This document shows, in pieces, positions 10,048 to 63,600 of a stretch of 64,000 bases of DNA. Under the pieces are notes generated by a model, which saw only the letters and a list, made by a program, of their open reading frames with translations, was not told the origin of the DNA and made no database searches. This stretch comes from Eledone cirrhosa. Its lineage: Eukaryota. Position numbers and translations under genes: made by a program. Within the stretch, counting starts at the first letter, position 1; each line of letters begins with the position of its first letter. The DNA lies in NCBI GenBank assembly GCA_964016885.1, contig OZ024740.1, positions 15,376,001-15,440,000 on the forward strand, written 5' to 3'.

Positions 10048-10349
10048 CCTCTCTCTCCCCCTTGATTTCTTCCTCTGTCTAGTAGTCCTTGCCCTTCTCC
10101 CCTTTTTCCTCTCATCTATGGCATTTATAGTCGTTTCCATTACTGCTTTCTTTTTCTGTTTCACCAATTTATGGTTATTGCTGTCTAGCTTCCTTGAGAC
10201 ATCGGGGAAGGGTTTGGTCCAGCGACACATTTTAATTTCTTTTGTAAGCAAAAGTGTCGAACAACAATTTCCAGATTCTTCCACGTGTATCTTCTCGCCA
10301 GTGTTCGAAATTGTAGAGAAATATTCCAGATAGTTCAGCTTTCTGCTTC

Positions 10350-10417
10350 TGTATGTGTGTCTGTGTGTGTCTGTGTGTGTCTGTTTGACTGTGTGTGTCT
10401 TTGTGTGTGTGTGTGTC

Positions 10418-10501
<84 letters not shown>

Positions 10502-10563
10502 TGTGCGCGTGTGTGTGCGTGTGTGTGTGCGTCTGTGTGTGTCTTTGTGTGTGTGTCTGTGTG
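10350..10563. repeat. (GT)n microsatellite
   Basis: Directly visible; source of spurious CV/HT ORFs. Confidence 0.95.
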
Positions 10564-10574
10564 TCACCATACCA

Positions 10575-11779
10575 TGAATAGTATGGTATGGTGGGACAAT
10601 AGACTTAAACTTAAACTTAAAGAACAATTAGAAGACAGCAACCTCTTAACCCTGATAATGTACTCCCGCTACGTTGATGATATAAACATCGTAGTAAAAA
10701 CACGCCCACTAGAGAACAGTCAGGAATTAGAGAAAAACACCATGGAAAGCATCCAGCAAATAGCTAACTCCATCCACCAGAGTATTAGAGTTACTATAGA
10801 CTACCCAAGCAAACACCCCAACCATCGATTACCTGTACTAGACACAGAGCTCTGGTTAGAAACCATTAATAACAAAAACAAATCCTCCATTCCCATTATG
10901 CCAAACCCATGACTTCCAAATATCTGATCCAACGAAACTCATCTGTTTCGGACCATACCAAAATCAACATACTGATTGCGGATTTGGTACGGGTGATGAG
11001 AAACGTCTCCCGCATGTGCAACCCCGAAGAACTAGAGAGACACATACAACACTTCATCCACCGTATGCAGTTCTCTGGCTACAATCAGAGTACATAGAGG
11101 AGCCAGAACCAAATGGGAAAAAATAGTAAATAATGATACAAATGGGACCTGCCCCTTGTATAGGAGCAAATTTTGGAATAGAATAGAAAGAACTAGGAAT
11201 AAGGTTAATAGAATAAACTCATGGTATGATAGCAATAAATACCAGAGTGTAATGTTCATTAATACAACCCCTAGAGGTGAATTAGCTAACAAATTTAGAA
11301 GGGCGCTAGATAAACATAAACTCAATATTAAGATAGTAGAAAGACCAGGTACCTCCATAAAAACACTTATGAGCAATACTTTTCAAAAACCTCGCTGTAT
11401 AGATAGGAAATGTATAATCTGTAAACTAAGCCCCCATATTAACTGTAAAACTAGAAATGTAGTGTATAGCATAAGATGTACTGAAGGACAATGTAGAGAC
11501 ACAAATATAGTGTACATAGGTGAGACACCTCGTAGTATAGGGGAACGGTTAAATGAACACTGGCGAGACCTTCAAGATAGTAAAGAATCATCTGTACTCT
11601 ACCAACATGCTAAAATAGAACATAAGGGCAAATTAGAGAACATAGAAATAAAAATAGAATCTACACACAGAAAAGACGCAATGTTTAGACAAATCACAGA
11701 GGCAATAAACATAAATGAACTCCAACTAAAATTAAATAGAAAACATGAGTGGAATAGCAACATCACAACTTACAATTAA
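10575..11779 (+). pseudogene. Frameshifted PLE RT/GIY-YIG polyprotein remnant
   Basis: Three consecutive ORF pieces (to 10912, 10909-11097, 11156-11779) in different frames carry successive RT, thumb and GIY-YIG motifs. Confidence 0.85.
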
Positions 11780-11971
11780 GGACAAAATGAAAACACATAC
11801 GCACATAGAACAAACAACCAACCTGTAACATGTAAATAAACAAATAAATAAACAAATATAAACACACACAGATATCCGGATGTAACACAAACTAAGCACA
11901 CAACACACACAAAAACAAGATGGCGTAGGACAGAACAAAGGAGAGGCACAAAAACAAAGAAAGAATCCCCA

Positions 11972-12014
11972 GTCACTGAAGAGGTCACAGAATGTGTGAC
12001 GAAAGAACTTTGAC
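11972..12014 (+). ncRNA. Minimal type I hammerhead ribozyme motif in the PLE 3' pLTR
   Basis: GTCA-CTGAAGA-G-GTCACA(GAATG)TGTGAC-GAAAG-AA-CTT-TGAC; atypical CUU triplet. Confidence 0.65.
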
Positions 12015-12219
12015 AATATATGAACAACTGTCCAGTTGTGGAACCAACCAACCAACCGGAAATTTATAAATTCTTAAATTTATAAATTTAATTTATAATA
12101 AATTGAAGTGAAAGCAACTGGTGCGTGTGTTTCTTATTGGCAACATAACCCTCCCAAAGTATAACAATATCGGTTTCAACACACGTTTTCAGATAAAAAT
12201 CTTGTTAAACAAATTCAGA

Positions 12220-12265
<46 letters not shown>

Positions 12266-43265: not shown

Positions 43266-43272
<7 letters not shown>
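42752..43272. mobile_element. Diverged ~320-bp retrozyme-like element: one monomer (-) joined to a partial inverted copy (+)
   Basis: Shares AGAGCGGTTGCCGGTC..GCAGAAATT..TGCTCTGAAATAGCGATATATA and CTGTATG..CATTT(C/T)GAAGACCT..CGCTAT with the 310-bp unit; inverted arms 42752-42902 and 43082-43234; in (TA)n. Confidence 0.8.
42880..42922 (-). ncRNA. Type I hammerhead, U3:A8 core variant
   Basis: Reverse complement: GCT-TTGATAA-GTAC(CAATCA)GTAC-GAAAC-AGAGCTCT-GTC-AGC. Confidence 0.78.
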
Positions 43273-43324
<52 letters not shown>

Positions 43325-43540: not shown

Positions 43541-44583
43541 ATTAAAATACTGGAGCGTGTTGGAGTTAAACACCCTCTTCGTATTATAGAAATGACAGTA
43601 AAAGGTATAGCTCAATGTAATTAAACAGAGCCGAAGAATTATGAAAATAAAACAAAGAAGCCTTCAATACATCAAAAGTCTTTATTAGCCAACAATGTTT
43701 CGTCCTATTAAGGACTCATCAGGGCAGATGTTTATATTTTTCGTCCTATTAAGGACTCATCATGTAAGATGTTTATATTTTTGTACCATCATAATTTTGG
43801 GTATTGTACAATTTATATTTTTTCTCACCTTCTCTGTAACTCTATATGAATTGATTTGTTAACTTACATGCCATTATATATTATATATTATTATATTATT
43901 ATTATAGTATTATTGTGACATCTATATTGTTTGTGTAAATTAACCGGAGATTATCTATTATATTATATTATATATTATGTAATTATATAGTTTATTATAT
44001 ATTATATGTGTTACTTTTAATCATTCCATTACTTCATGTATATTAGAAATACGTATTATTATTATATTTATTCCTATTATGCTTATTTATATTTAAACTC
44101 TTAATAAGGTTTAATTTGTCCTGTTAATGATGGATATGTGTATTGATGTATGTGTATATGTGCGTACGTGTGCGTACATATATACATATGTATATTGTGC
44201 CTTTTAATCTTAATTTTTAATTTTAATTTTAATATTGTTACAAGTATATTATATTATATTATATTGTATTACATATAGTACTATAATTCCCGCTCTATAT
44301 AACCACCTTTGTTTAGCTCTAGGTTTTTTTTGCTTTGGACTATATTTGTAATATGGTTCAAAATGTTATCCACCTCCTTAGTGATTTTTATTATATATTT
44401 TTACCCATAATCTTCCAATACTTTAGTGTATGTACACTCCATATTCTTCGGAGTTTTTGGCTTGTATTGGCCGATAGTACTTCTTGTGGTTTTAATTGCC
44501 CTGATGAGTCCTTAATAGGACGAAACATTGTTGGCTAATAAAGACTTTTGATGTATTGAAGGCTTCTTTGTTTTATTTTCATA
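43540..44583. mobile_element. Non-coding AT-rich PLE-derived insert with inverted hammerhead-bearing ends
   Basis: 43640-43726 is the reverse complement of 44497-44583; HHR GCC-CTGATGA-GTCC(TTAATA)GGAC-GAAAC-ATT-GTT-GGC at 44498-44535 (+) and 43687-43726 (-). Confidence 0.8.
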
Positions 44584-46609: not shown

Positions 46610-47370
46610 ATAATGAAATACAAAGTAGTTTCAGGTCTTAAAATCCAATGATGACTGTGTCCACGTGATTCCGTGTACCCAGTGCCATGATCTCATCAGA
46701 CAGCTTCCTACATAATAAGGTTACGTTCTCGAGACAATCCAAATTGAAGCGACAAGGGAACGGGCAAAAATGATGATCTTAAAGCTTTCACCCGTTCCCT
46801 TGCGAGCCCCAATCAGACTCCACAACTTTGCGCAGGCGCAAATGTAACGGAAGCTGCCCAGCTATCCAACTATTTACCGCCCAAATACAGTAAACTAGCC
46901 TAGAGAGCCACCCCCCACCCCCACCCAGGCCGGTAAAGTTACATGGTCCCAGATGCCAGCCAACTAAATTGTAGTCCACTGCCAGTCTAGTAGCAACCGA
47001 CTGGAACTCTGAGGTAATAGCAGGCTATGATTTTCAATCTGTTTTAATACTACCCCCCTCTCCCCCAACTATGTATGGCTAATAGAACTGACCATCACCC
47101 GTGAACACACACACGCACATATATATATATATATATGTTAAGTATTTCCGTGGGAAAGGTAAAGGAAAGAAGAGTGCTCTATGTATAGTACAGAGCTATT
47201 TAATAATGTAATAAACAACATAATATAATTATTCCATTCCCCAAGGTTTCACGAAGTTAGACGCTTCTAACATCATCTGATGAACGATATCAGCCGTTTC
47301 TGTTAGAATCGTCTAACTATTGTGTTGTTTATTAAATAAATACATGTATATATATATATATAAATACATG

Positions 47371-47428
<58 letters not shown>

Positions 47429-47432
<4 letters not shown>

Positions 47433-50400
47433 TATAGACATAGAATATTCGAAAATATTCTGTATGTTTATAATAAACATTTTGAAGACCTAATCGCTAT
47501 AGAATAGAATACGTCACGTATTACAATTAGATTCTCGATAAAAGCAAGGGAAGTAATCTACGCGTTTCATTCTTGTTAGAATTCATCAGGACTACATATC
47601 CAGTGCTTTTATCGAGAATGACACAGCTAGAGACTTATAGAATACTTAGCTGTGTACTGGAACTGGTTTGAAAGAGCGGTTGCCGGTCCGGCAGAAATTA
47701 GAAATTGGAATAAATGCTCTGAAATAGCGATATATATGTGAGTATAGACATAGAATATTCGAAAATATTCTGTATGTTTATAATAAACATTTTGAAGACC
47801 TAATCGCTATAGAATAGAATACGTCACGTATTACAATTAGATTCTCGATAAAAGCAAGGGAAGTAATCTACGCGTTTCATTCTTGTTAGAATTCATCAGG
47901 ACTACATATCCAGTGCTTTTATCGAGAATGACACAGCTAGAGACTTATAGAATACTTAGCTGTGTACTGGAACTGGTTTGAAAGAGCGGTTGCCGGTCCG
48001 GCAGAAATTAGAAATTGGAATAAATGCTCTGAAATAGCGATATATATGTGAGTATAGACATAGAATATTCGAAAATATTCTGTATGTTTATAATAAACAT
48101 TTTGAAGACCTAATCGCTATAGAATAGAATACGTCACGTATTACAATTAGATTCTCGATAAAAGCAAGGGAAGTAATCTACGCGTTTCATTCTTGTTAGA
48201 ATTCATCAGGACTACATATCCAGTGCTTTTATCGAGAATCTAATTGTAATACGTGACGTATTCTATTCTATAGCGATTAGGTCTTCAAAATGTTTATTAT
48301 AAACATACAGAATATTTTCGAATATTCTATGTCTATACTCACATATATATCGCTATTTCAGAGCATTTATTCCAATTTCTAATTTCTGCCGGACCGGCAA
48401 CCGCTCTTTCAAACCAGTTCCAGTACACAGCTAAGTATTCTATAAGTCTCTAGCTGTGTCATTCTCGATAAAAGCACTGGATATGTAGTCCTGATGAATT
48501 CTAACAAGAATGAAACGCGTAGATTACTTCCCTTGCTTTTATCGAGAATCTAATTGTAATACGTGACGTATTCTATTCTATAGCGATTAGGTCTTCAAAA
48601 TGTTTATTATAAACATACAGAATATTTTCGAATATTCTATGTCTATACTCACATATATATCGCTATTTCAGAGCATTTATTCCAATTTCTAATTTCTGCC
48701 GGACCGGCAACCGCTCTTTCAAACCAGTTCCAGTACACAGCTAAGTATTCTATAAGTCTCTAGCTGTGTCATTCTCGATAAAAGCACTGGATATGTAGTC
48801 CTGATGAATTCTAACAAGAATGAAACGCGTAGATTACTTCCCTTGCTTTTATCGAGAATCTAATTGTAATACGTGACGTATTCTATTCTATAGCGATTAG
48901 GTCTTCAAAATGTTTATTATAAACATACAGAATATTTTCGAATATTCTATGTCTATACTCACATATATATCGCTATTTCAGAGCATTTATTCCAATTTCT
49001 AATTTCTGCCGGACCGGCAACCGCTCTTTCAAACCAGTTCCAGTACACAGCTAAGTATTCTATAAGTCTCTAGCTGTGTCATTCTCGATAAAAGCACTGG
49101 ATATGTAGTCCTGATGAATTCTAACAAGAATGAAACGCGTAGATTACTTCCCTTGCTTTTATCGAGAATCTAATTGTAATACGTGACGTATTCTATTCTA
49201 TAGCGATTAGGTCTTCAAAATGTTTATTATAAACATACAGAATATTTTCGAATATTCTATGTCTATACTCACATATATATCGCTATTTCAGAGCATTTAT
49301 TCCAATTTCTAATTTCTGCCGGACCGGCAACCGCTCTTTCAAACCAGTTCCAGTACACAGCTAAGTATTCTATAAGTCTCTAGCTGTGTCATTCTCGATA
49401 AAAGCACTGGATATGTAGTCCTGATGAATTCTAACAAGAATGAAACGCGTAGATTACTTCCCTTGCTTTTATCGAGAATCTAATTGTAATACGTGACGTA
49501 TTCTATTCTATAGCGATTAGGTCTTCAAAATGTTTATTATAAACATACAGAATATTTTCGAATATTCTATGTCTATACTCACATATATATCGCTATTTCA
49601 GAGCATTTATTCCAATTTCTAATTTCTGCCGGACCGGCAACCGCTCTTTCAAACCAGTTCCAGTACACAGCTAAGTATTCTATAAGTCTCTAGCTGTGTC
49701 ATTCTCGATAAAAGCACTGGATATGTAGTCCTGATGAATTCTAACAAGAATGAAACGCGTAGATTACTTCCCTTGCTTTTATCGAGAATCTAATTGTAAT
49801 ACGTGACGTATTCTATTCTATAGCGATTAGGTCTTCAAAATGTTTATTATAAACATACAGAATATTTTCGAATATTCTATGTCTATACTCACATATATAT
49901 CGCTATTTCAGAGCATTTATTCCAATTTCTAATTTCTGCCGGACCGGCAACCGCTCTTTCAAACCAGTTCCAGTACACAGCTAAGTATTCTATAAGTCTC
50001 TAGCTGTGTCATTCTCGATAAAAGCACTGGATATGTAGTCCTGATGAATTCTAACAAGAATGAAACGCGTAGATTACTTCCCTTGCTTTTATCGAGAATC
50101 TAATTGTAATACGTGACGTATTCTATTCTATAGCGATTAGGTCTTCAAAATGTTTATTATAAACATACAGAATATTTTCGAATATTCTATGTCTATACTC
50201 ACATATATATCGCTATTTCAGAGCATTTATTCCAATTTCTAATTTCTGCCGGACCGGCAACCGCTCTTTCAAACCAGTTCCAGTACACAGCTAAGTATTC
50301 TATAAGTCTCTAGCTGTGTCATTCTCGATAAAAGCACTGGATATGTAGTCCTGATGAATTCTAACAAGAATGAAACGCGTAGATTACTTCCCTTGCTTTT

Positions 50401-50850
50401 ATCGAGAATCTAATTGTAATACGTGACGTATTCTATTCTATAGCGATTAGGTCTTCAAAATGTTTATTATAAACATACAGAATATTTTCGAATATTCTAT
50501 GTCTATACTCACATATATATCGCTATTTCAGAGCATTTATTCCAATTTCTAATTTCTGCCGGACCGGCAACCGCTCTTTCAAACCAGTTCCAGTACACAG
50601 CTAAGTATTCTATAAGTCTCTAGCTGTGTCATTCTCGATAAAAGCACTGGATATGTAGTCCTGATGAATTCTAACAAGAATGAAACGCGTAGATTACTTC
50701 CCTTGCTTTTATCGAGAATCTAATTGTAATACGTGACGTATTCTATTCTATAGCGATTAGGTCTTCAAAATGTTTATTATAAACATACAGAATATTTTCG
50801 AATATTCTATGTCTATACTCACATATATATCGCTATTTCAGAGCATTTAT

Positions 50851-50856
<6 letters not shown>
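47429..50856. mobile_element. Retrozyme-like array 1: 310-bp hammerhead unit, ~2.6 copies (-) then ~8.5 copies (+); 11 HHRs
   Basis: Exact 310-nt periodicity; HHRs start at 47553, 47863, 48173 (-) and 48485+310n, n=0-7 (+); flanked by (TA)n. Confidence 0.93.
48485..48527 (+). ncRNA. Type I hammerhead ribozyme (representative of array 1); predicted cleavage after GUA at 48521
   Basis: GTAGTC-CTGATGA-ATTCT(AACA)AGAAT-GAAAC-GC-GTA-GATTAC; stem I extended by ATTCTCGATAAAAGCA/TGCTTTTATCGAGAAT (16 bp). Confidence 0.92.
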
Positions 50857-50888
<32 letters not shown>

Positions 50889-51025
50889 TAAAAGCCGGAA
50901 ACAGAAGTTGCCCTCGGCCTCTGTAGGTCTTTATCTTATTTTTATAAACTATCTTTATAGCATTTCTGCGCTTGGGCACTTCTTTTTAACACCATGTTTA
51001 CCTGTTTTTTCTTCCTTAATTATTA

Positions 51026-51078
51026 CTGCCTGATGAGGTCCCAGCCAATAATGGCTGTCACTGAAATATATATAGCAG
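51026..51078 (+). ncRNA. Type I hammerhead motif in a ~340-bp solo pLTR-like insert (50885-51227) between TA tracts
   Basis: CTGC-CTGATGA-GGT..CAGCCA(ATAA)TGGCTG..ACT-GAAA-TATATA-TA-GCAG. Confidence 0.75.
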
Positions 51079-51254
51079 AGAATTAGAATAAACGAAGCCA
51101 ACTTTAACATATTTGACTTACACTTAATATTCTACATTACTCCGGAGTAAACAAACCAGCCTGCGCACCTCGTTGAGTGCGCCAACCTGTATACTGAGGT
51201 GTCGGTAAACAACCAGTATATACTCAATATATATATATATATATATATATTACC

Positions 51255-52604
51255 CTATTCCCAATTCCCCCGTCTTCGTCGACTCTGTAGCTAGGACCAC
51301 GATTTCGAAACCCATTCTCTTCACATGGCCTCCCACTTCATCCAGTGGATATCCCCCCACCCCGATCCAAGCTGCTCTCACCCGCGCCCGTGAAACCGAC
51401 CGTTCAACAGACCCCTCACCTCACCAGCACCCTCCCAATACATGCCTTCCTTTCCCTCTCACCTATCACCCCATCACTTCTCGCATCTTTCCTAACCTAC
51501 CTATCACCGCATTTAAGCGCGCCCGTAACCCCCGCGACCTCCTGGTACGCAGTTCCTTCTCGACCTATCCTATGACACCACCCGGCTCTCATCCTTGTTC
51601 TCGTCTCCGCTGTAACACTTGTCCTTTCATTTCCACCCTCACCACTCTTACAGGCCCTAACGGGTCTTTCCTTATCCGCCATTCCTTCACTTGCACCTCC
51701 ACCCAAGTTGTCTATGCCACCCGGTGTTCTCTTTGATACATCGGACAAACGGGACGCCGTTTGGCGGACCGAATTGCTGAACATTTGAGGGACATATGAC
51801 TCAGTTTGGATACTTCCGTTGCCCGTCATTTCCGTTTCCCAGGTCACTCTTCCTTATATGTCTCAGTCCTGGGTGTCCTTTTACATCACGGATCGCAGAA
51901 CTCGCGCACCAGGACTGAACAGGGTCTGATTTACAGCCTTGGGCCCTGTTTCCCTCACGGACTCAACTCCCCTCCCCAATTTCTTTAATACCCCGGCCGT
52001 TATCACACACGCGCTTGTACATTCACCCTTAGATTCCTATAGCTCTCTTATGATCAGAAACTTCTCTTACCGCTAATACAGATCAACAAAATACGCACAC
52101 TGCTTTTCCCTTCACAGCTCTGTATACACACACACACACACACACACACACTTATATTAACATACTTTTGCTTACAACTTCGTACTTACAAGCACACACA
52201 GATACTCTTTTACTTACATATAGACACGCATATCCTCTTAGCTTCGTAGGACGTATAATAACACACACACAAAGACCCCCTCGCCCATGCGCATACGCAC
52301 GTGCACAAGTATAGCTCTATATACAAAATAGTTTTTTTTTCCATTTCAGGTAGACGCGCTCCATCATCCACTTTTCTAAAACATAAATCATACACAAAAC
52401 ACCAGCACCAACAATTTTGCAAGAGATGTCAACATGAATGGACCTGTTATTTTTATCTAAAGACATTTTTTCCAATTCCAATCCGCCCATCCCTTCAATT
52501 TTTCTTATTCTTTCTTTTGATGAAGGACTAGCGTCCGAAACGTTAAGACCCTCTTCCTGCTATTTCAAACGTTAACCTGATATATTCCTTCCATATACTG
52601 TACT
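51255..52604 (+). mobile_element. Decayed PLE 3' portion (GIY-YIG remnant and pLTR with hammerhead)
   Basis: ~51685-51988 translates FTCTSTQVVYATRCSL*YIGQTGRRLADRIAEHLRDI*..VARHF..GHS..EQGLIYSLG..PHGLN; HHR TCTT-TTGATGA-A-GGAC(TAGC)GTCC-GAAAC-GTT-AAGA at 52513-52548. Confidence 0.82.
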
Positions 52605-52685
52605 ATAATTTTGAGATAGAGCGTCCGTGATGTTTGCTCTAATCTGATTAGAGCAAACATCACGGACGCTCTATCTCAAAATTAT
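52605..52685. repeat. Perfect 40-bp-arm palindrome with 1-nt spacer
   Basis: ATAATTTTGAGATAGAGCGTCCGTGATGTTTGCTCTAATC-T-GATTAGAGCAAACATCACGGACGCTCTATCTCAAAATTAT. Confidence 0.95.
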
Positions 52686-52867
52686 TTTTGAAAAGCATTA
52701 GAAATGCGCAACCGGTAAAACTTAAAACCAAAACTGAATACTAACCAATACTATTACTAATTCTCACTTATTCCTAATTAAACTATTTTTCACTGTGAAC
52801 AATTTGTCAGCATTTTCTTTTCCGTTTACCAATATATCATAACTTGTGTGTTACACCTCTATTCTTT

Positions 52868-52898
<31 letters not shown>

Positions 52899-52914
52899 GG
52901 TACGTTTCTTGTGG

Positions 52915-52940
<26 letters not shown>

Positions 52941-52945
<5 letters not shown>

Positions 52946-54201
52946 AGATCAAAAGATGGTTAAAGGAGTTCAATATATTTTATTATGCGCATTTCAAAAA
53001 CAAACATCATCAAACAATAATATTTGTGTTTTCATCAGATAAAACAGGAGAACATGATATGAAGGCTAAAAAAACACTTGTTGATAGTGCAGTTTTAAAT
53101 CAACATATGAAAAGTGGTTTTAGATTGATGTGTGATATTGGGAAAAATATTTTATTTAGAGAGGGGGGGAGAGAAAAGGATGAAAAGGGAAGGAGATGAG
53201 AGGGAGAGATGGGTGATAGAGAGAAAGAGATAGTTTTTATAACAGAGAGGAGATACAAGCACACACAGATACTCTTTTACTTACATATAGACACGCATAT
53301 ATAAAAACTCTAACTTCACATTATTTTTCTCAAATCCTATACATAAACTTTTTCTCTTTGCTAATTTTAAAATTCCTACATTTCTCCTTTTGAATATTCA
53401 CCCACAATTATTATTTTTTTTTTTCTCTCTATCTCCATACATAATCTCCCTTCGTTATTATTTTTTTCTCTCTATCTCCATACATAATTTCCCTTCGTTA
53501 ATTTTCAAATTCCTTTAATTTATACATTATCTTCCAACGGTTCCCAACCTCTCTATATTAAAACATTATATCTTTTTCTCAGTTATAAAAACTATCTCTT
53601 TCTCTCTATCACCCATCTCTCCCTTTCCACCTTCACTCTCATCTCCTCCCCTTTTTTTTTTTTTTTTTCATCCTTTCCACCCCCACCCCTCCCTAAATAT
53701 AATATATTTTTTCCTCGCACATATCCTCCCTTCGTTAATTTTCAAAATTTTTAATTTATACAGTATCTTCCAACGGTTTTCAACCCCTCTATATAAAATA
53801 TATCTCCTCTCTGTTATAAAAACTATCTCTTTCTCTCTATCACCCATCTCTCCCTCTCATCTCCTTCCCTTTTCATCCTTTTCTCTCCCCCCCTCTCTAA
53901 ATAAAATATTTTTCCCAATATCACACATCAATCTAAAACCACTTTTCATATGTTGATTTAAAACTGCACTATCAACAAGTGTTTTTTTAGCCTTCATATC
54001 ATGTTCTCCTGTTTTATCTGATGAAAACACAAATATTATTGTTTGATGATGTTTGTTTTTGAAATGCGCATAATAAAATATATTGAACTCCTTTAACCAT
54101 CTTTTGATCTTATATTATGCATACTCCAGTCCCACAAACTGTAGAGTGCTTCTTATCCGATATCTGCATTGCTTTATTGTACTACAATAAAACTCACCTC
54201 C

Positions 54202-54203
<2 letters not shown>
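52941..54203. mobile_element. Non-coding PLE-derived insert with ~315-bp inverted ends, each with a hammerhead
   Basis: 52941-53255 is the reverse complement of ~53801-54116; HHR TTTTAT-CTGATGA-(long stem II)-GAAA-TGCGCA-TA-ATAAAA at 54012-54078 (+) and 52978-53044 (-); right arm runs ~85 nt further. Confidence 0.82.
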
Positions 54204-54267
<64 letters not shown>

Positions 54268-54289
54268 ACAAGAAACGTACCATTAAGAG

Positions 54290-54985
54290 ACAGTAAACAG
54301 ACCATAAGTAAAGCATGAAGATAACAAACAGGTAAGTTGTAAACATTTGATAATGACGTAGTAAACATATAATAATGATATAGTAGACAGTAAACACAGT
54401 AAACATACTGTAACAGACAGTAAAATTGATAGTAAACACACAGTAAACATACGATAAAGAGACTATAAAACATTCTGTGAAAATGTAGTAAACATGTAGC
54501 AAACATACAGTAAACATGTAGTAAACATGTAGTAAACATGTAGTAAACATGTAGTAAACACGCAGTAAGCATGCAGTAAACATGTAGAAAACATGCAGTA
54601 AACATGTAGCGAACGTGCTGTAAACATGCAATAAACATGTATTAAATATGCAGTAAACATGTAGTAAACATGTAGTAAACATGCAGTGGATATGTAGTAA
54701 CCGTGTAACGAGCGTGCAGTGAGAATGTAGTAAACATGTATTAAACATGTAGTAAATATGTAGTAAATATGCAATAGACATGTAGTAAACGTGTAGCAAG
54801 CGTGCAGTGAGAATGTATTAAACATGTATTAAACATGCAGTAAACATGTAGTTAACATGTAGTAAACGTGTAGCGAGCGTGCATTGAGAGTGTAGTAAAC
54901 ATGTAGTAAACATGCAATGGACATGTAGTAAACGTGTAATGAGTGTGCAGTGCAGGGAGAATGTAGTAAACATGTAGTAGCATAG
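54290..54985. repeat. Degenerate 11-bp (AGTAAACATGT)n repeat
   Basis: Directly visible. Confidence 0.85.
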
Positions 54986-55439
54986 TATAAAGAAGCCTTA
55001 AAGTAAGGCTGAAGAAAGGAAAGCTGTGTATTTGTATTGATGTGATAGAGTGTCGACGGTGGATGTTGTAACTATGGTAACGTAAGGGTCATTGATAAAT
55101 ATATAAGACATGGTGGAAAGGGAGGGAGAAGGGGGGAGGAAGGATGGAGGGAAGGGGGAGAGGGAGGAGAGGAAGGAGAGGAAGGAGAGTGAATCAACGA
55201 AGGAAGGAAATAAGATAGGAAAGAGGTGGAAGAAAGAAAAATAATAGGATGTAAGAGAGTAGAGGAAGGAAGGAGGGAGAATGACTGAAGAAAGCAAAGA
55301 GGAAGGAAAGAGGGAAAGTGTATGATGGAAGGGGGAGAAGGCGGAGGAAGGGGAGGAGTGAAAGAAAGAAAGCAAATAAAGGGGAGGGGTGGGAATACTT
55401 CAATCGTTCTGACTGACTACATTATCGATTATATCTGAT

Positions 55440-56890
55440 GAGGAGGTGGTGTGTGGTGTGTGTAGTGTGTAGAGGTGGTGTGGTGTGTGTAGTGTGTGTA
55501 GTGTGTGTGTAGAGGTGGTGTGTAGTGTGTGGATGTGTGTGGTGTGTGTGGTGTGTGGTGTGTGGATGTGTGTGGTGTGTTGATGTGTGTGGTGTGTGGT
55601 GTGTGGATGTGTGTGGATGTGTGTAGTGTGTGTGTAGAGGTGGTGTGTAGTGTGTGGTGTGTGGATGTGTGTGTAGTGTGTAGAGGTGGTGTGTAGTGTG
55701 TGTGTAGAGGTGGTGTGTAGTGTGTGGTGTGTGGATGTGTGTGGTGTGTGGATGTGTGTGGTGTGTGGTGTGTGGTGTGTGGTGAGTGGATGTGTGTGGT
55801 GTGTGGTGTGTGGATGTGTGTGGTGTGTGGATGTGTATGGTGTGTGGTGTGTGGATGTGTGTGGTGTGTGGTGTGTGGTGTGTGGTTGTGTGTGGATGTG
55901 TGTGGTGTGTGGTGTGTGGTGTGTGGTTGTGTGTGGATGTGTGTGGTGTGTGGTGTGTGGTGTGTGGATGTGTGTGGTGTGTGGATGTGTGTGTGGATGT
56001 GTGTGTGGATGTGTGTGTATGTGGTGTGTGGTGTGTGGTGTGTGGATGTATGTGGTGTATAGATGTGTGTGGTGTGTGGTGTGTGGTTGTGTGTGGATGT
56101 GTGTGGTGTGTGGTGTGTGGTGTGTGGATGTGTGTGGATGTGTGTAGTGTGTGTAGTGTGTGGTGTGTGGTGTGTGGATGTGTGTGGTGTGTGGATGTGT
56201 GTGGATGTGTGGTGTGTGGATGTGTGTGGTGTGTGGATGTGTGTGGATGTGTGTGGATGTGTGTGGTGTGTGGATGTGTGTGTAGTGTGTGGTGTGTGGT
56301 GTGTGGATGTTTGGTGTGTGGTGTGTGGATGTGTGTGTAGTGTGTGGTGTGTGGATGTGTGTGGTGTGTGGTGTGTGTAGTGTGTGGTGTGTAGTGTGTG
56401 GTGTGTGGATGTGTAGTGTGTGGTGTGTGGATATGTGTGGTGTGTGGATGTGTGTGGTGTGTGGATGTGTGTGTAGTGTGTGGTGTGTGGTGTGTGGTGT
56501 GTGGATGTGTGTGGTATGTGGTGTGTGGTGTGTGGATGTGTGTGTAGTGTGTGGTGTGTGGTGTGTGGTGTGTGGATGTGGGTGTGTAGTGTGTGGTGTG
56601 TAGATATGTGTGGTGTGTGGATGTGTGTGGATGTGTGGATGTGTGTGTAGTGTGTGGTGTGTGGTGTGTGGATGTGTGTGGTGTGTGTTGTGTGTGGTGT
56701 GTGGATGTGTGTGGTGTGTGGTGTGTGGTGTGTGGATGTGTGTAGTGTGTGTGGTGTGGATGTGTGTGTGGTGTGTGGTGTGTGTGGATGTGTGTGTAGT
56801 GTGTAGGGTGTGTAGTGTGTGTGTGGATGTGTGTAGAGGTGTGTAGAGGTGTGTGGATGTGGTGTGTGTAGTGTGTGTGTGTGGAGGTTT
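55440..56890. repeat. (GT/GGT/GGAT) low-complexity tract
   Basis: Directly visible. Confidence 0.93.
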
Positions 56891-57050
56891 ATGTATGTGC
56901 TGGTGTACATGTATGTGTGTGTATGTGTATAGGTGTAACGGTGGTTGCAGTGTGTATGTGTGTGTGTCGGAGTGGAAACGTATATGTGTGTTTGTGAGTG
57001 TGAACGTATGGGAGTGTCTGTGTGTGGTACCTATGTATGTATGTATGTAT

Positions 57051-57570
57051 ATATCAGAGTTTTCCATCTCCTAGAATTCTGCCTTGACAAAGGCTAAGGG
57101 GTCATCTCTCCCGGTGATTTTGGATGGCCATTGACACTTAAGAGCTCCTTTGCCCTTTGACAGGTTTTGTTTTTAGTCCTGCAGGATGTCCAAAGTCACC
57201 CTCCTCACCAAGAAACCTTGGTGGGGTTGCCAGTTTAGTCGCCAATGACCCGACCATGGGACAGGTAGTACTGGGATACATGTTACCAGTAGCACCAACT
57301 GGTGACCTGATTTTGTGCAGTGCCTTTGCTCCCTATAAAAGCTTCACGGCACAGGCATTGCTTTATATCTGGAGATCTCTCTGCACTTGTCGTCACATGG
57401 TACCATGAGCCCAGCACTATGTGTCAATAATTGTCACAAGTGTAGTGTTTGTACCAGAGTTTTCAAGTCGCTGGCTGGACTAAAAAGTCTCACTCGTTCA
57501 GCGCATCGGTAGAGGTTCTCCTACATATAAAGTAGTGGCCGTACTCGAAAACGAGTTGGCAGCCACCATG
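57051..57570 (+). mobile_element. Colinear copy of the ~520-bp RTE-derived bipartite non-autonomous element
   Basis: 3' part encodes CTRVFKSLAGLKS (cf. RTE finger CARHFRSLAGLKS) and ends GGCCGTACTCGAAAACGAGTTGGCAGCCACCATGT like the RTE 3' end at 16830. Confidence 0.8.
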
Positions 57571-57573
57571 TAG

Positions 57574-57605
<32 letters not shown>

Positions 57606-57634
57606 TGTAGTATATATATATATATGTATATATG

Positions 57635-60600
57635 TATGTGAATATAGACATAGAATATTCGAAAATATTCTGTATGTTTATAATAAACATTTTGAAGACC
57701 TAATCGCTATAGAATAGAATACGTCACGTATTACAATTAGATTCTCGATAAAAGCAAGGGAAGTAATCTACGCGTTTCATTCTCGTTAGAAATCATCAGG
57801 ACTACATATCCAGTGCTTTTATCGAGAATGACACAGCTAGAGACTTATAGAATACTTAGCTGTGTACAGGAACTGGTTTGAAAGAGCGGTTGCCGGTCCG
57901 GCAGAAATTAGAAATTGGAATAAATGCTCTGAAATAGCGATATATATGTGAATATAGACATAGAATATTCGAAAATATTCTGTATGTTTATAATAAACAT
58001 TTTGAAGACCTAATCGCTATAGAATAGAATACGTCACGTATTACAATTAGATTCTCGATAAAAGCAAGGGAAGTAATCTACGCGTTTCATTCTCGTTAGA
58101 AATCATCAGGACTACATATCCAGTGCTTTTATCGAGAATGACACAGCTAGAGACTTATAGAATACTTAGCTGTGTACAGGAACTGGTTTGAAAGAGCGGT
58201 TGCCGGTCCGGCAGAAATTAGAAATTGGAATAAATGCTCTGAAATAGCGATATATATGTGAATATAGACATAGAATATTCGAAAATATTCTGTATGTTTA
58301 TAATAAACATTTTGAAGACCTAATCGCTATAGAATAGAATACGTCACGTATTACAATTAGATTCTCGATAAAAGCAAGGGAAGTAATCTACGCGTTTCAT
58401 TCTCGTTAGAAATCATCAGGACTACATATCCAGTGCTTTTATCGAGAATGACACAGCTAGAGACTTATAGAATACTTAGCTGTGTACAGGAACTGGTTTG
58501 AAAGAGCGGTTGCCGGTCCGGCAGAAATTAGAAATTGGAATAAATGCTCTGAAATAGCGATATATATGTGAATATAGACATAGAATATTCGAAAATATTC
58601 TGTATGTTTATAATAAACATTTTGAAGACCTAATCGCTATAGAATAGAATACGTCACGTATTACAATTAGATTCTCGATAAAAGCAAGGGAAGTAATCTA
58701 CGCGTTTCATTCTCGTTAGAAATCATCAGGACTACATATCCAGTGCTTTTATCGAGAATGACACAGCTAGAGACTTATAGAATACTTAGCTGTGTACAGG
58801 AACTGGTTTGAAAGAGCGGTTGCCGGTCCGGCAGAAATTAGAAATTGGAATAAATGCTCTGAAATAGCGATATATATGTGAATATAGACATAGAATATTC
58901 GAAAATATTCTGTATGTTTATAATAAACATTTTGAAGACCTAATCGCTATAGAATAGAATACGTCACGTATTACAATTAGATTCTCGATAAAAGCAAGGG
59001 AAGTAATCTACGCGTTTCATTCTCGTTAGAAATCATCAGGACTACATATCCAGTGCTTTTATCGAGAATGACACAGCTAGAGACTTATAGAATACTTAGC
59101 TGTGTACAGGAACTGGTTTGAAAGAGCGGTTGCCGGTCCGGCAGAAATTAGAAATTGGAATAAATGCTCTGAAATAGCGATATATATGTGAATATAGACA
59201 TAGAATATTCGAAAATATTCTGTATGTTTATAATAAACATTTTGAAGACCTAATCGCTATAGAATAGAATACGTCACGTATTACAATTAGATTCTCGATA
59301 AAAGCAAGGGAAGTAATCTACGCGTTTCATTCTCGTTAGAAATCATCAGGACTACATATCCAGTGCTTTTATCGAGAATGACACAGCTAGAGACTTATAG
59401 AATACTTAGCTGTGTACAGGAACTGGTTTGAAAGAGCGGTTGCCGGTCCGGCAGAAATTAGAAATTGGAATAAATGCTCTGAAATAGCGATATATATGTG
59501 AATATAGACAGTTCCTGTACACAGCTAAGTATTCTATAAGTCTCTAGCTGTGTCATTCTCGATAAAAGCACTGGATATGTAGTCCTGATGATTTCTAACG
59601 AGAATGAAACGCGTAGATTACTTCCCTTGCTTTTATCGAGAATCTAATTGTAATACGTGACGTATTCTATTCTATAGCGATTAGGTCTTCAAAATGTTTA
59701 TTATAAACATACAGAATATTTTCGAATATTCTATGTCTATATTCACATATATATCGCTATTTCAGAGCATTTATTCCAATTTCTAATTTCTGCCGGACCG
59801 GCAACCGCTCTTTCAAACCAGTTCCTGTACACAGCTAAGTATTCTATAAGTCTCTAGCTGTGTCATTCTCGATAAAAGCACTGGATATGTAGTCCTGATG
59901 ATTTCTAACGAGAATGAAACGCGTAGATTACTTCCCTTGCTTTTATCGAGAATCTAATTGTAATACGTGACGTATTCTATTCTATAGCGATTAGGTCTTC
60001 AAAATGTTTATTATAAACATACAGAATATTTTCGAATATTCTATGTCTATATTCACATATATATCGCTATTTCAGAGCATTTATTCCAATTTCTAATTTC
60101 TGCCGGACCGGCAACCGCTCTTTCAAACCAGTTCCTGTACACAGCTAAGTATTCTATAAGTCTCTAGCTGTGTCATTCTCGATAAAAGCACTGGATATGT
60201 AGTCCTGATGATTTCTAACGAGAATGAAACGCGTAGATTACTTCCCTTGCTTTTATCGAGAATCTAATTGTAATACGTGACGTATTCTATTCTATAGCGA
60301 TTAGGTCTTCAAAATGTTTATTATAAACATACAGAATATTTTCGAATATTCTATGTCTATATTCACATATATATCGCTATTTCAGAGCATTTATTCCAAT
60401 TTCTAATTTCTGCCGGACCGGCAACCGCTCTTTCAAACCAGTTCCTGTACACAGCTAAGTATTCTATAAGTCTCTAGCTGTGTCATTCTCGATAAAAGCA
60501 CTGGATATGTAGTCCTGATGATTTCTAACGAGAATGAAACGCGTAGATTACTTCCCTTGCTTTTATCGAGAATCTAATTGTAATACGTGACGTATTCTAT

Positions 60601-62568
60601 TCTATAGCGATTAGGTCTTCAAAATGTTTATTATAAACATACAGAATATTTTCGAATATTCTATGTCTATATTCACATATATATCGCTATTTCAGAGCAT
60701 TTATTCCAATTTCTAATTTCTGCCGGACCGGCAACCGCTCTTTCAAACCAGTTCCTGTACACAGCTAAGTATTCTATAAGTCTCTAGCTGTGTCATTCTC
60801 GATAAAAGCACTGGATATGTAGTCCTGATGATTTCTAACGAGAATGAAACGCGTAGATTACTTCCCTTGCTTTTATCGAGAATCTAATTGTAATACGTGA
60901 CGTATTCTATTCTATAGCGATTAGGTCTTCAAAATGTTTATTATAAACATACAGAATATTTTCGAATATTCTATGTCTATATTCACATATATATCGCTAT
61001 TTCAGAGCATTTATTCCAATTTCTAATTTCTGTCGGACCGGCAACCGCTCTTTCAAACCAGTTCCTGTACACAGCTAAGTATTCTATAAGTCTCTAGCTG
61101 TGTCATTCTCGATAAAAGCACTGGATATGTAGTCCTGATGATTTCTAACGAGAATGAAACGCGTAGATTACTTCCCTTGCTTTTATCGAGAATCTAATTG
61201 TAATACGTGACGTATTCTATTCTATAGCGATTAGGTCTTCAAAATGTTTATTATAAACATACAGAATATTTTCGAATATTCTATGTCTATATTCACATAT
61301 ATATCGCTATTTCAGAGCATTTATTCCAATTTCTAATTTCTGCCGGACCGGCAACCGCTCTTTCAAACCAGTTCCTGTACACAGCTAAGTATTCTATAAG
61401 TCTCTAGCTGTGTCATTCTCGATAAAAGCACTGGATATGTAGTCCTGATGATTTCTAACGAGAATGAAACGCGTAGATTACTTCCCTTGCTTTTATCGAG
61501 AATCTAATTGTAATACGTGACGTATTCTATTCTATAGCGATTAGGTCTTCAAAATGTTTATTATAAACATACAGAATATTTTCGAATATTCTATGTCTAT
61601 ATTCACATATATATCGCTATTTCAGAGCATTTATTCCAATTTCTAATTTCTGCCGGACCGGCAACCGCTCTTTCAAACCAGTTCCTGTACACAGCTAAGT
61701 ATTCTATAAGTCTCTAGCTGTGTCATTCTCGATAAAAGCACTGGATATGTAGTCCTGATGATTTCTAACGAGAATGAAACGCGTAGATTACTTCCCTTGC
61801 TTTTATCGAGAATCTAATTGTAATACGTGACGTATTCTATTCTATAGCGATTAGGTCTTCAAAATGTTTATTATAAACATACAGAATATTTTCGAATATT
61901 CTATGTCTATATTCACATATATATCGCTATTTCAGAGCATTTATTCCAATTTCTAATTTCTGCCGGACCGGCAACCGCTCTTTCAAACCAGTTCCTGTAC
62001 ACAGCTAAGTATTCTATAAGTCTCTAGCTGTGTCATTCTCGATAAAAGCACTGGATATGTAGTCCTGATGATTTCTAACGAGAATGAAACGCGTAGATTA
62101 CTTCCCTTGCTTTTATCGAGAATCTAATTGTAATACGTGACGTATTCTATTCTATAGCGATTAGGTCTTCAAAATGTTTATTATAAACATACAGAATATT
62201 TTCGAATATTCTATGTCTATATTCACATATATATCGCTATTTCAGAGCATTTATTCCAATTTCTAATTTCTGCCGGACCGGCAACCGCTCTTTCAAACCA
62301 GTTCCTGTACACAGCTAAGTATTCTATAAGTCTCTAGCTGTGTCATTCTCGATAAAAGCACTGGATATGTAGTCCTGATGATTTCTAACGAGAATGAAAC
62401 GCGTAGATTACTTCCCTTGCTTTTATCGAGAATCTAATTGTAATACGTGACGTATTCTATTCTATAGCGATTAGGTCTTCAAAATGTTTATTATAAACAT
62501 ACAGAATATTTTCGAATATTCTATGTCTATATTCACATATATATCGCTATTTCAGAGCATTTATTCCA
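57635..62568. mobile_element. Retrozyme-like array 2: 310-bp hammerhead unit, ~6 copies (-) then ~9.9 copies (+); 16 HHRs
   Basis: HHRs start at 57763+310n, n=0-5 (-) and 59579+310n, n=0-9 (+); GTAGTC-CTGATGA-TTTCT(AACG)AGAAT-GAAAC-GC-GTA-GATTAC. Confidence 0.93.
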
Positions 62569-63173
62569 GTATATATGTATGTATGTATGTAGTATATATA
62601 TATATATGTATATATGTATGTATGTATGTAGTATATATATATATATGTATATATGTATGTATGTATACATCCATGGTCCTCTGCTGTAAAGAAGTGGCAG
62701 TCATCATATATATATATATATGCATGTATGTATGAATGATATGAATGTATGTGTATTTTTGTATGTATATATGGATGTATATATGTATGTATATATGTAT
62801 GTATATATGTATGTATATAACTGGTGGCATGTAGGGTATAGTGTATGGTGATTTTATGCAATGAGTGGTTTGCGTGTTTGCTTGTGTATAAGTGTATGTG
62901 TATTCCTGTATATATGTATGTGTGTGTGTCGTGAATATACACCACTGAGAAAACAGATATGCCGGTGTTGTCGAAGTAAAATCCCTGGTAATATTAATTC
63001 CATCTGTATTATTCAGACGTTCCCCTACCCCAGCGACCATCAGACTCTGTAGTATACCAGCAGTAGATCACCGTTGGAAACCTGTAACCAACGACGTTAT
63101 TGTTCACAATATGCCATGCATAAGATTATAACAAATAAATTCAGTAATCAACGACGCTATTGTTCACAATATG

Positions 63174-63504: not shown

Positions 63505-63600
63505 ATTTGAAGAGGCTCCGTCGAGCTGCCGATTATTGAGTCGGGTAGGATCGATATAGATCGAACCTTGAGCTGATCAGTGGCGAAACGCGCGTCACCT
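63505..63600 (+). ncRNA. Possible degenerate hammerhead with long stem II insert
   Basis: TTGAAGAG...GGC-GAAAC-GCGC-GTC; palindromic stem III present but stem I does not pair convincingly. Confidence 0.3.

Follow-up and report, generated by a model that had tools for sequence, protein, structure and literature searches.

Head-to-head arrays of a 310-nucleotide retrozyme in the genome of Eledone cirrhosa: most likely the record of single-template, twin-primed insertions

The stretch of DNA considered here (the window) comprises 64,000 nucleotides (nt) of the genome of Eledone cirrhosa (assembly GCA_964016885.1, contig OZ024740.1, positions 15,376,001 to 15,440,000 of the forward strand) and carries two arrays of a 310-nt tandem unit that has the features of a non-LTR (non-long terminal repeat) retrozyme, each array lying between TA-rich sequences as two arms joined head to head. 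Tandem Repeats Finder reports four 310-bp blocks from 47420 to 62568 of the window. In what follows, unit positions are numbered from 48300, the first base of the reference unit (48300-48609) with which the arrays were compared, and A and B denote the two sites at which the outer ends of the arms lie. The arrays and their immediate surroundings are made up as follows:

47336..47428, (TA)n target, left flank of array 1
47429..48239, minus strand, inverted arm of array 1, 2.6 units, outer 3' end at unit position 42 (start site B)
48224..48239, head-to-head junction of array 1, a 16-bp overlap via the unit's inverted repeat (positions 162-177 / 235-250)
48224..50856, plus strand, forward arm of array 1, 8.5 units, outer 3' end at unit position 77 (start site A)
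48461..48549, plus strand, 16-bp stem extending hammerhead stem I
48485..48527, plus strand, type I hammerhead motif, the first of 8 in the forward arm of array 1, one per unit, predicted cut after 48521
50857..50883, (TA)n target, right flank of array 1
57568..57634, TA-rich target, left flank of array 2
57635..59510, minus strand, inverted arm of array 2, 6.05 units, outer end at unit position 46 (site B)
59509..59510, junction of the arms of array 2, a 2-bp overlap
59509..62568, plus strand, forward arm of array 2, 9.9 units, outer end at unit position 75 (site A)
62569..62666, TA-rich target, right flank of array 2

Array 1 has no mismatch to the unit over either 48224-50856 (plus strand) or 47429-48239 (minus strand), and the single mismatch at 47428 already belongs to the TA flank outside the array. 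Array 2, compared with its own unit, has no mismatch over 57635-59510 and one, a C>T at 61033, over 59509-62568, and all of its copies in both arms differ from the array 1 unit by 39 C>T, 123 A>T, 199 A>T and 207 A>G. In the hammerhead, position 199 corresponds to position 10.1, at the first pair of stem II, which is A-U in array 1 and U.U in array 2; position 207 belongs to loop II, and the core is untouched by these differences. An earlier note made from the letters of the window had described just this: units uniform within each array, four differences fixed between the arrays in both orientations, a single private variant near 61033 and two of the four differences in stem or loop II with none in the core; the exact comparison of monomers agrees with it throughout. 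The last 13-14 bases of the left target of array 2 reappear to the right of the array, a possible target-site duplication that is ambiguous in so repetitive a target.

The unit is 310 nt long with 107/310 bases G+C, its predicted fold is more stable than those of shuffled versions (z -4.5), and no open reading frame (ORF) of at least 120 amino acids (aa) is found in the arrays. The parts of the hammerhead motif are, in unit positions, stem I at 186-191/223-228 (6 bp), the core CUGAUGA at 192-198, stem II at 199-202/209-212 (4 bp), GAAA at 213-216, a palindromic helix III of one pair and a GUA triplet, with cleavage predicted after 222; core, stems I and II, minimal helix III and triplet are legible at all 27 places in the window. 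An internal 30-mer of the unit has 17,982 exact matches in the 3.0-Gb genome. Judged by these features of its sequence the unit is a non-LTR retrozyme (PMC7229834), because it is a 310-nt, non-coding, low-GC tandem unit with a type I hammerhead motif and is dispersed in many copies. It is like the metazoan non-LTR retrozymes described so far (Cervera and de la Pena 2020, PMC7229834; Li et al. 2026) in that its tandem unit is ~300 nt long, low in GC and non-coding and has one type I hammerhead, and also in its short palindromic helix III and its thousands of copies, and the U.U mismatch at the base of stem II is shared with the axolotl HHR_Amex2; a short palindromic helix III is typical of metazoan hammerheads that cleave as dimers (PMC4209133). 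For metazoan retrozymes both expression and cleavage have been shown, whereas cleavage of the 310-nt unit is predicted from its sequence. More hammerhead-like cores occur outside the arrays, at 43698-43782, ~51020-51070, ~52519-52550 and ~63570-63600 of the window.

The anatomy of the two arrays recurs throughout the genome. From 113 stretches fetched around arrays, 116 arrays were called, the window's two included, and 103 of them have two head-to-head arms with their 3' ends outward; two more proved to be two-armed once they were retrieved whole. Among the 30 two-armed arrays that had not been picked by their ends, every one has one A and one B end, with the A end at unit position 75-84 in all 30 (at 77 in 21) and the B end, upstream of it, at 33-51 in 29 (mostly within 38-51, and at 42 in 14); for seven of them the score is 51, where the end merges with a TA stretch belonging to the unit itself. 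The modal interval from A to B is 35 nt, and all 30 show the one-sided tail that marks Penelope elements. Genome-wide, exact joins to (TA)n number 1,013 for the commonest A end and 1,285 for B ends, and a TA run of at least 6 bases is present on at least one flank in 99/101 arrays and on both flanks in 87/101; in the empty-site comparison the flank of one array (L076, in our numbering of loci) is itself a repeat. The pattern matches that of Penelope insertions, in which an inverted truncated copy is combined with a one-sided tail of 30-40 bp (PMC8557442, PMC3846280). At five loci (L070, L094, L118, L124 and L131) the TA-run flanks resemble inverted copies of each other and are apparently the ends of earlier insertions, so that the same (TA)n sites have apparently been targeted in nested fashion.

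That each array descends from one template is indicated by the haplotypes of its units. The counts omit loci L031-L049, which had been chosen for identity to array 1, and refer to the remaining 90 arrays; the duplicates L087 and L103 were dropped, as were the diverged first array of L044 from the variant counts and the poorly supported L056 and L096 from the variant spectrum, and variant calls exclude 45 nt at the inner and 16 nt at the outer ends of arms. There are 32 haplotypes, 21 of them seen once; that of array 2 is the commonest (21/90) and that of array 1 occurs in 4/90. In 66 of the 69 arrays that have a full unit in each arm the two arms share one haplotype, where random pairing gives a mean of 8.2 and a maximum of 17 concordant arrays in 5,000 permutations; the two arms are therefore not drawn independently from the cell's pool. 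Even rare haplotypes are common to both arms, and rare alleles are fixed array-wide, as are 310A>T in 25/25 positions of L107 and three rare changes in every unit of L118.

Variation within arrays has the form expected of a single event. Minor alleles number 144 across 316 kb of units, and 132 of them occur once; merging linked sites leaves 140 events, of which 132 are singletons, as compared with 62 expected from a neutral coalescent and 85 from stepwise (Yule) growth. Private substitutions number 110, of which 61 are transitions, the density of singletons is ~0.4 per kb, and arrays of ~32 and ~36 units have only two private changes each among their full units. The 52-bp array of the same window, to which the earlier note had contrasted the retrozyme arrays as heterogeneous, indeed comprises 119 distinct units among 173, with a mean divergence of 6.0% and 61/95 variant alleles in two or more units. 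The marks of a classical satellite, i.e., variants shared by neighbours and ends that are not fixed, are present in the 52-bp array and in the longest retrozyme arrays and are absent from the others. We conclude that typical arrays arose star-like in a single event and that gradual expansion fits them poorly. The note's proposal of one recent event in which one template was copied many times is thus borne out across the 116 arrays by the concordance of arms, the singleton variants and the new variants fixed array-wide. Its rejection of gradual satellite expansion holds for typical arrays and fails for the longest (L064, L065 and L088), the shared variants of which are likely to reflect later duplication at the DNA level; such secondary duplication in long arrays is a possible route from retrozyme insertion to satellite. 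Variants repeat periodically in the arms of 27 and 45 units, which extend over the loci L227+L064 and L088+L228.

That the template was a monomer is suggested by the scarcity of variants inherited in register. A linear multi-unit transcript predicts 38 shared variants in the same register of both arms at today's density of variants, or 9.5 at a quarter of that density (90,972 positions in 102 arrays); two such events (L084 and L101) were observed, beside 77 unshared positions. A monomer template would instead pass a change in the source unit to all units of the new array; on that basis ~11 such substitutions are expected in 88 arrays, and 13 substitutions are indeed fixed in one array only. 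No private insertion or deletion occurs at unit positions 218-228, around the predicted cut, in the 316 kb of units, which a ligated circle would fit better than would repeated jumps from end to end. The note's further suggestion of rolling-circle reverse transcription accordingly stands as regards a single template and many copies; a closed circle appears probable from the points just given, and L084 and L101 point to multi-unit templates or template switching.

The two arms also appear to have been started separately. Junctions between arms have no filler bases in 74 of 103 cases, and these show overlaps of at least 2 nt in 44/74 (13.5 expected) and of at least 3 nt in 23/74 (5.0 expected). 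At 11 of 89 clean junctions the inner ends lie no more than 20 nt apart in the unit, with 12.6 expected by chance, so that the phases of the arms are unrelated; the A arm exceeds the B arm in length in 56 of 101 arrays and in the other 45 the B arm is equal or longer, and the centre of symmetry of L084 and L101 is at the outer ends, not at the junction. These observations fit two primings rather than a fold-back, and they support an addition to the earlier note, namely that the event primes twice, from both ends of the target, at two fixed sites ~30 nt apart. L1 twin priming reportedly yields an inverted 5' part, independent truncation and microhomology at the junction, in all of which the retrozyme arrays are alike; one start of L1 is at its poly(A) 3' end and the other is internal and varies in place, whereas both starts of the arrays are fixed and internal, and the arms, unlike those of L1, overlap in sequence and are multimeric. 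The single best record of template order, and the best case for weighing a linear against a circular template, is L101 (1595-7996).

An imprint of RNA structure can be discerned in the changes that became fixed. There are 28 distinct array-wide substitutions; predicted helices contain 10 of them, and in 9 of the 10 the pair is kept, as compared with 17 of the 57 (among 110) private substitutions that lie in helices (p=5e-4). Changes that make G.U pairs are 7 A>G and 0 C>T when array-wide and 6 A>G and 11 C>T when private (p=0.006); G replaces A188, which stands in a UAG context, on six haplotype backgrounds and A171 on three. ADAR enzymes prefer the UAG context. Adenosine-to-inosine (A-to-I) editing of the template RNA is likely, because selection on structure alone should admit C>T equally, within a test that has small numbers and uses a predicted structure. 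A tree-based count of A>G (14/37 events) was set aside, since homoplasy may inflate it.

The element is thus of a known kind, and its insertions most likely record a single-template, twin-primed reaction of the rolling-circle type. We consider it probable that each array is one insertion into (TA)n, for which a Penelope reverse transcriptase (RT) was primed from both cut ends on one probably circular monomer RNA and copied it for many rounds. In this scheme a genomic array would be transcribed and the transcript would cleave itself, by prediction after unit position 222, with ligation of the monomer to a circle as envisaged for published retrozymes; a dimeric Penelope RT/GIY-YIG endonuclease would cut both strands of the self-complementary (TA)n, as an anole element does in vitro; and the two 3' ends would start complementary DNA (cDNA) at the internal sites A (75-84) and B (33-51), from which the fixed outer ends would follow. 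Both polymerases would travel in the same direction round the circle and stop independently, and the two cDNAs would be joined head to head through microhomology of 1-6 nt, the ends and junctions being what is observed of that process. A change in the one RNA, either from a mutated source unit or from likely A-to-I editing, would become fixed in all units of both arms, later DNA mutations would remain private, and very long arrays would be reshuffled by ordinary DNA duplication.

Several parts of this scheme have precedents. The conversion of retrozyme circles to tandem cDNA by Penelope enzymes is a published hypothesis, in which the circular RNA template of animal retrozymes is proposed, not shown (PMC7229834, PMC4209133), and both circle-templated reverse transcription and a Penelope helper are proposed for metazoan non-LTR retrozymes (PMC7229834; Li et al. 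2026). Li, Clavereau and Pollet (2026, bioRxiv 10.64898/2026.07.22.740005) link retrozymes by phylogeny to the pseudo-long terminal repeats (pLTRs) of Penelope-like elements and suggest local amplification by unequal crossover, which mostly does not fit the 310-nt family. Head-to-head arms, fixed twin ends and haplotype identity within arrays are undescribed in the portions of PMC7229834 and Li et al. 2026 considered here ('inverted' occurs 0 times in that of PMC7229834), and a literature search that left most subscription journals and supplements uncovered found no description of two-armed, haplotype-concordant retrozyme arrays or of evidence for their editing. Endonuclease-containing (EN+) Penelope-like elements (Craig et al. 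2021, PMC8557442; Arkhipova et al. 2013, PMC3846280) are alike in the inverted arm, the tail at one end, the (TA)n targets and the tandem copies, and include non-autonomous multicopy head-to-tail Chlamys elements such as MRC1 (PMC8557442), the origin of tandem and inverted Penelope-like insertions being described there as still undefined; the 310-nt element differs from them in that it has no ORF, has arms reaching 45 units and shares sequence with no partner among the families examined. A close biochemical parallel is PAc, the Poseidon element of Anolis, which in vitro cuts and extends both strands of AT-rich DNA and starts reverse transcription internally at two adjacent sites, the interval between which is the tail, with the enzyme predicted to be a dimer (Frangieh et al. 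2024, PMC11167929). The A and B ends of the 310-nt arrays match such a pair of internal start sites with the tail between them. PAc differs in that it was given linear templates only and that hammerhead cleavage was dispensable, and the portions of that paper considered here report neither a multimeric product nor an in vivo pairing of one site with each end of the target.

A number of observations weigh against this scheme. Three of the 69 arrays have discordant or chimeric arms, L075 and L110 with arms that differ at one site and L101, in which both arms change haplotype after two outer units, the inner units being of another haplotype; in L084, 116C>T is confined to the first full unit of each arm. 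Variants in matching outer units of both arms, as in L084 and L101, are impossible for a pure monomer circle, and multi-unit templates or joint template switches do occur. In L088, variants of the 45-unit arm recur with a period of 27 units, paired variants are common to several units in L064 and L065, and filler bases are present in 29/103 junctions. Target-site duplications have candidates in 4/101 arrays, all of them in repetitive targets, and are illegible in (TA)n. The hammerhead core is absent from the minimum-energy fold of the unit, and the match to Rfam HH9 is weak (23 bits, E 0.03, with a gathering score of 52), no Rfam family being found in the window at gathering thresholds. Two of the seven A>G changes, at 224 and 242, are of uncertain polarity in that an older copy has G, and the recurrence at 188 could have come about via template switching. 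Eighty of the loci were picked by an exact A end, all on one contig, and the haplotype sample thus favours young, intact copies. Finally, none of the four GIY-YIG/Penelope-like families examined, from among more in the genome, yielded a convincing partner that shares sequence with the 310-nt unit, and the assignment to Penelope is made because of the anatomy of the arrays, no partner with matching sequence having been found.

The alternative that deserves most attention, though we think it unlikely, is that twin Penelope priming used an uncleaved, linear transcript many units long that came from a homogeneous array already in the genome. It would explain the concordance of arms equally well, L084 and L101 do resemble products of multi-unit templates, and uncleaved RNA is the main in vitro substrate of the anole element (PMC11167929). 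Against it stand the ~38 (or 9.5) inherited in-register variants that it predicts, of which two events were found, and it offers no way for a new variant to spread through all 19 to 27 units of an array, as seen in L107, L112 and L118. A self-cleaved monomer that stays linear and unligated, the enzyme jumping from the 5' to the 3' end to recopy it, would impose the same bottleneck, and rare jumps to another molecule would give L075 and L101. End-to-end jumps are usually imprecise, as work on R2 indicates, and the clean interval at 218-228 counts against this reading for that reason; free jumps among 32 haplotypes should, moreover, yield far more mosaics than 3/69, and we regard it as quite improbable. 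The homogeneity might lastly be an artefact of assembly, through consensus collapse or polishing, to which we attach next to no credence: collapse would have erased the 32 haplotypes, the lengths and junctions particular to each locus and the 110 private substitutions, and would not have sorted the fixed changes by RNA structure.

Two further readings carry little weight. A short two-armed insertion might have come first, with unequal crossover or slippage lengthening its arms afterwards, the origin proposed for retrozyme tandem repeats by Li et al. (bioRxiv 10.64898/2026.07.22.740005), and L088, L064 and L065 do display duplication at the DNA level; the singletons (132/140, against 62-85 expected), the placing of 9 of the 12 shared alleles in arrays of at least 16 units and the 61/95 alleles shared in a true satellite of the same window leave this very little weight as an account of arrays in general. 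If instead the inverted arm were a fold-back, i.e., self-primed, copy of the first arm, as has been modelled for Penelope inversions (PMC3846280), the head-to-head order and the concordance would both follow, site B lies in a TA run able to anneal to the target, and the junction of array 1 uses the unit's own inverted repeat. The phase test (11/89, with 12.6 by chance) largely refutes it, the B arm is at least as long as the A arm in 45/101 arrays, and L084 and L101 are symmetric about their outer ends; the arrays accordingly speak for two primings and against self-priming as modelled by Arkhipova et al. (PMC3846280), and we would be greatly surprised if fold-back proved to be right.

Relatives of the unit and candidate helpers are present in the window and elsewhere in the genome. 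An older two-armed insertion of a sister family lies in (TA)n upstream of array 1:

42740..43277, older two-armed insertion of a sister family in (TA)n, unit ~67% identical, with ends near the same two sites

Sister retrozyme families have units of ~311-317 nt that are ~65% identical and have the same two-armed ends (window 42740-43277; L032 9400-9960; L058 5854-6232; L156-L185), and the stretch around start sites A and B, which is kept in them, is likely to be a protein-recognition module. Penelope-like families with GIY-YIG motifs are abundant in the genome, and copies of two of them end at (TA)n. One (window 10334-12224; L186, L187) has intact ORFs of ~1,000 aa elsewhere, with C-terminal GIY-YIG motifs, and a hammerhead-like motif in its pLTR; its two ends are apparently ~55 nt apart inside the start of the ORF. 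A second (L221-L226) has seven ORFs of 784 aa at six loci and is probably active, because six of these copies differ from the first by 15-16 of 2,352 bases; the family (L221-L226 and G000:C2:359515920-359534003) is very young, one locus has five tandem copies and one inverted, and window 52640-52870 resembles its pLTR, inverted at ~52646. A search for a partner by conserved motif found 30 loci and no match, a relaxed motif search returned sister retrozyme families only, and comparison of the unit with the flanks of two intact families was unconvincing (p 0.055-0.3), a match of the sister unit (p 0.035) lying beyond the end of the element.

The unit is also present in twenty sequencing runs from 16 studies, among which no RNA runs are listed. 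Runs X1, X3 and X9 each have a single 340-nt contig at a depth of 7-26 and X8 has one 261-nt contig; among 12.8 million raw-read records from the X2 study there were 0 matches; and in X5, which may be the assembly's own source, 9 contigs have TA joined to unit position 51 and 1 contig has it at 82. Horizontal transfer is not read from this distribution, carry-over of a high-copy repeat being as likely. Elsewhere in the window there are LINE-type RT ORFs at 17180-20374 (minus strand, of which 17180-19258 is open for 692 aa) and 14018-15771 (plus strand), and a long inverted duplication within 52871-54300 (~52930-53200 versus ~53860-54120) between TA runs.

The family is young and polymorphic and numbers well over a thousand arrays, so that each array records one reaction, with its haplotype as the label of the template molecule. 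The haplotypes provide genomic evidence for one monomeric template, for two primings at the sites that delimit the tail and for long, repeated copying by an enzyme related to telomerase, and the arrays pinpoint the start sites, the target and two adenosines (188 and 171) that are candidates for editing. More tentatively, at somewhat less than an even chance, we suggest that the two RTs of a dimer chase each other round one 310-nt circle for up to 30 or more copies per arm, and that this bottleneck of one molecule fixes A-to-I edits as heritable DNA haplotypes, so that the family would evolve partly by RNA editing. If that is true, the same event would explain the tandem, inverted and tailed insertions of Penelope elements in general.

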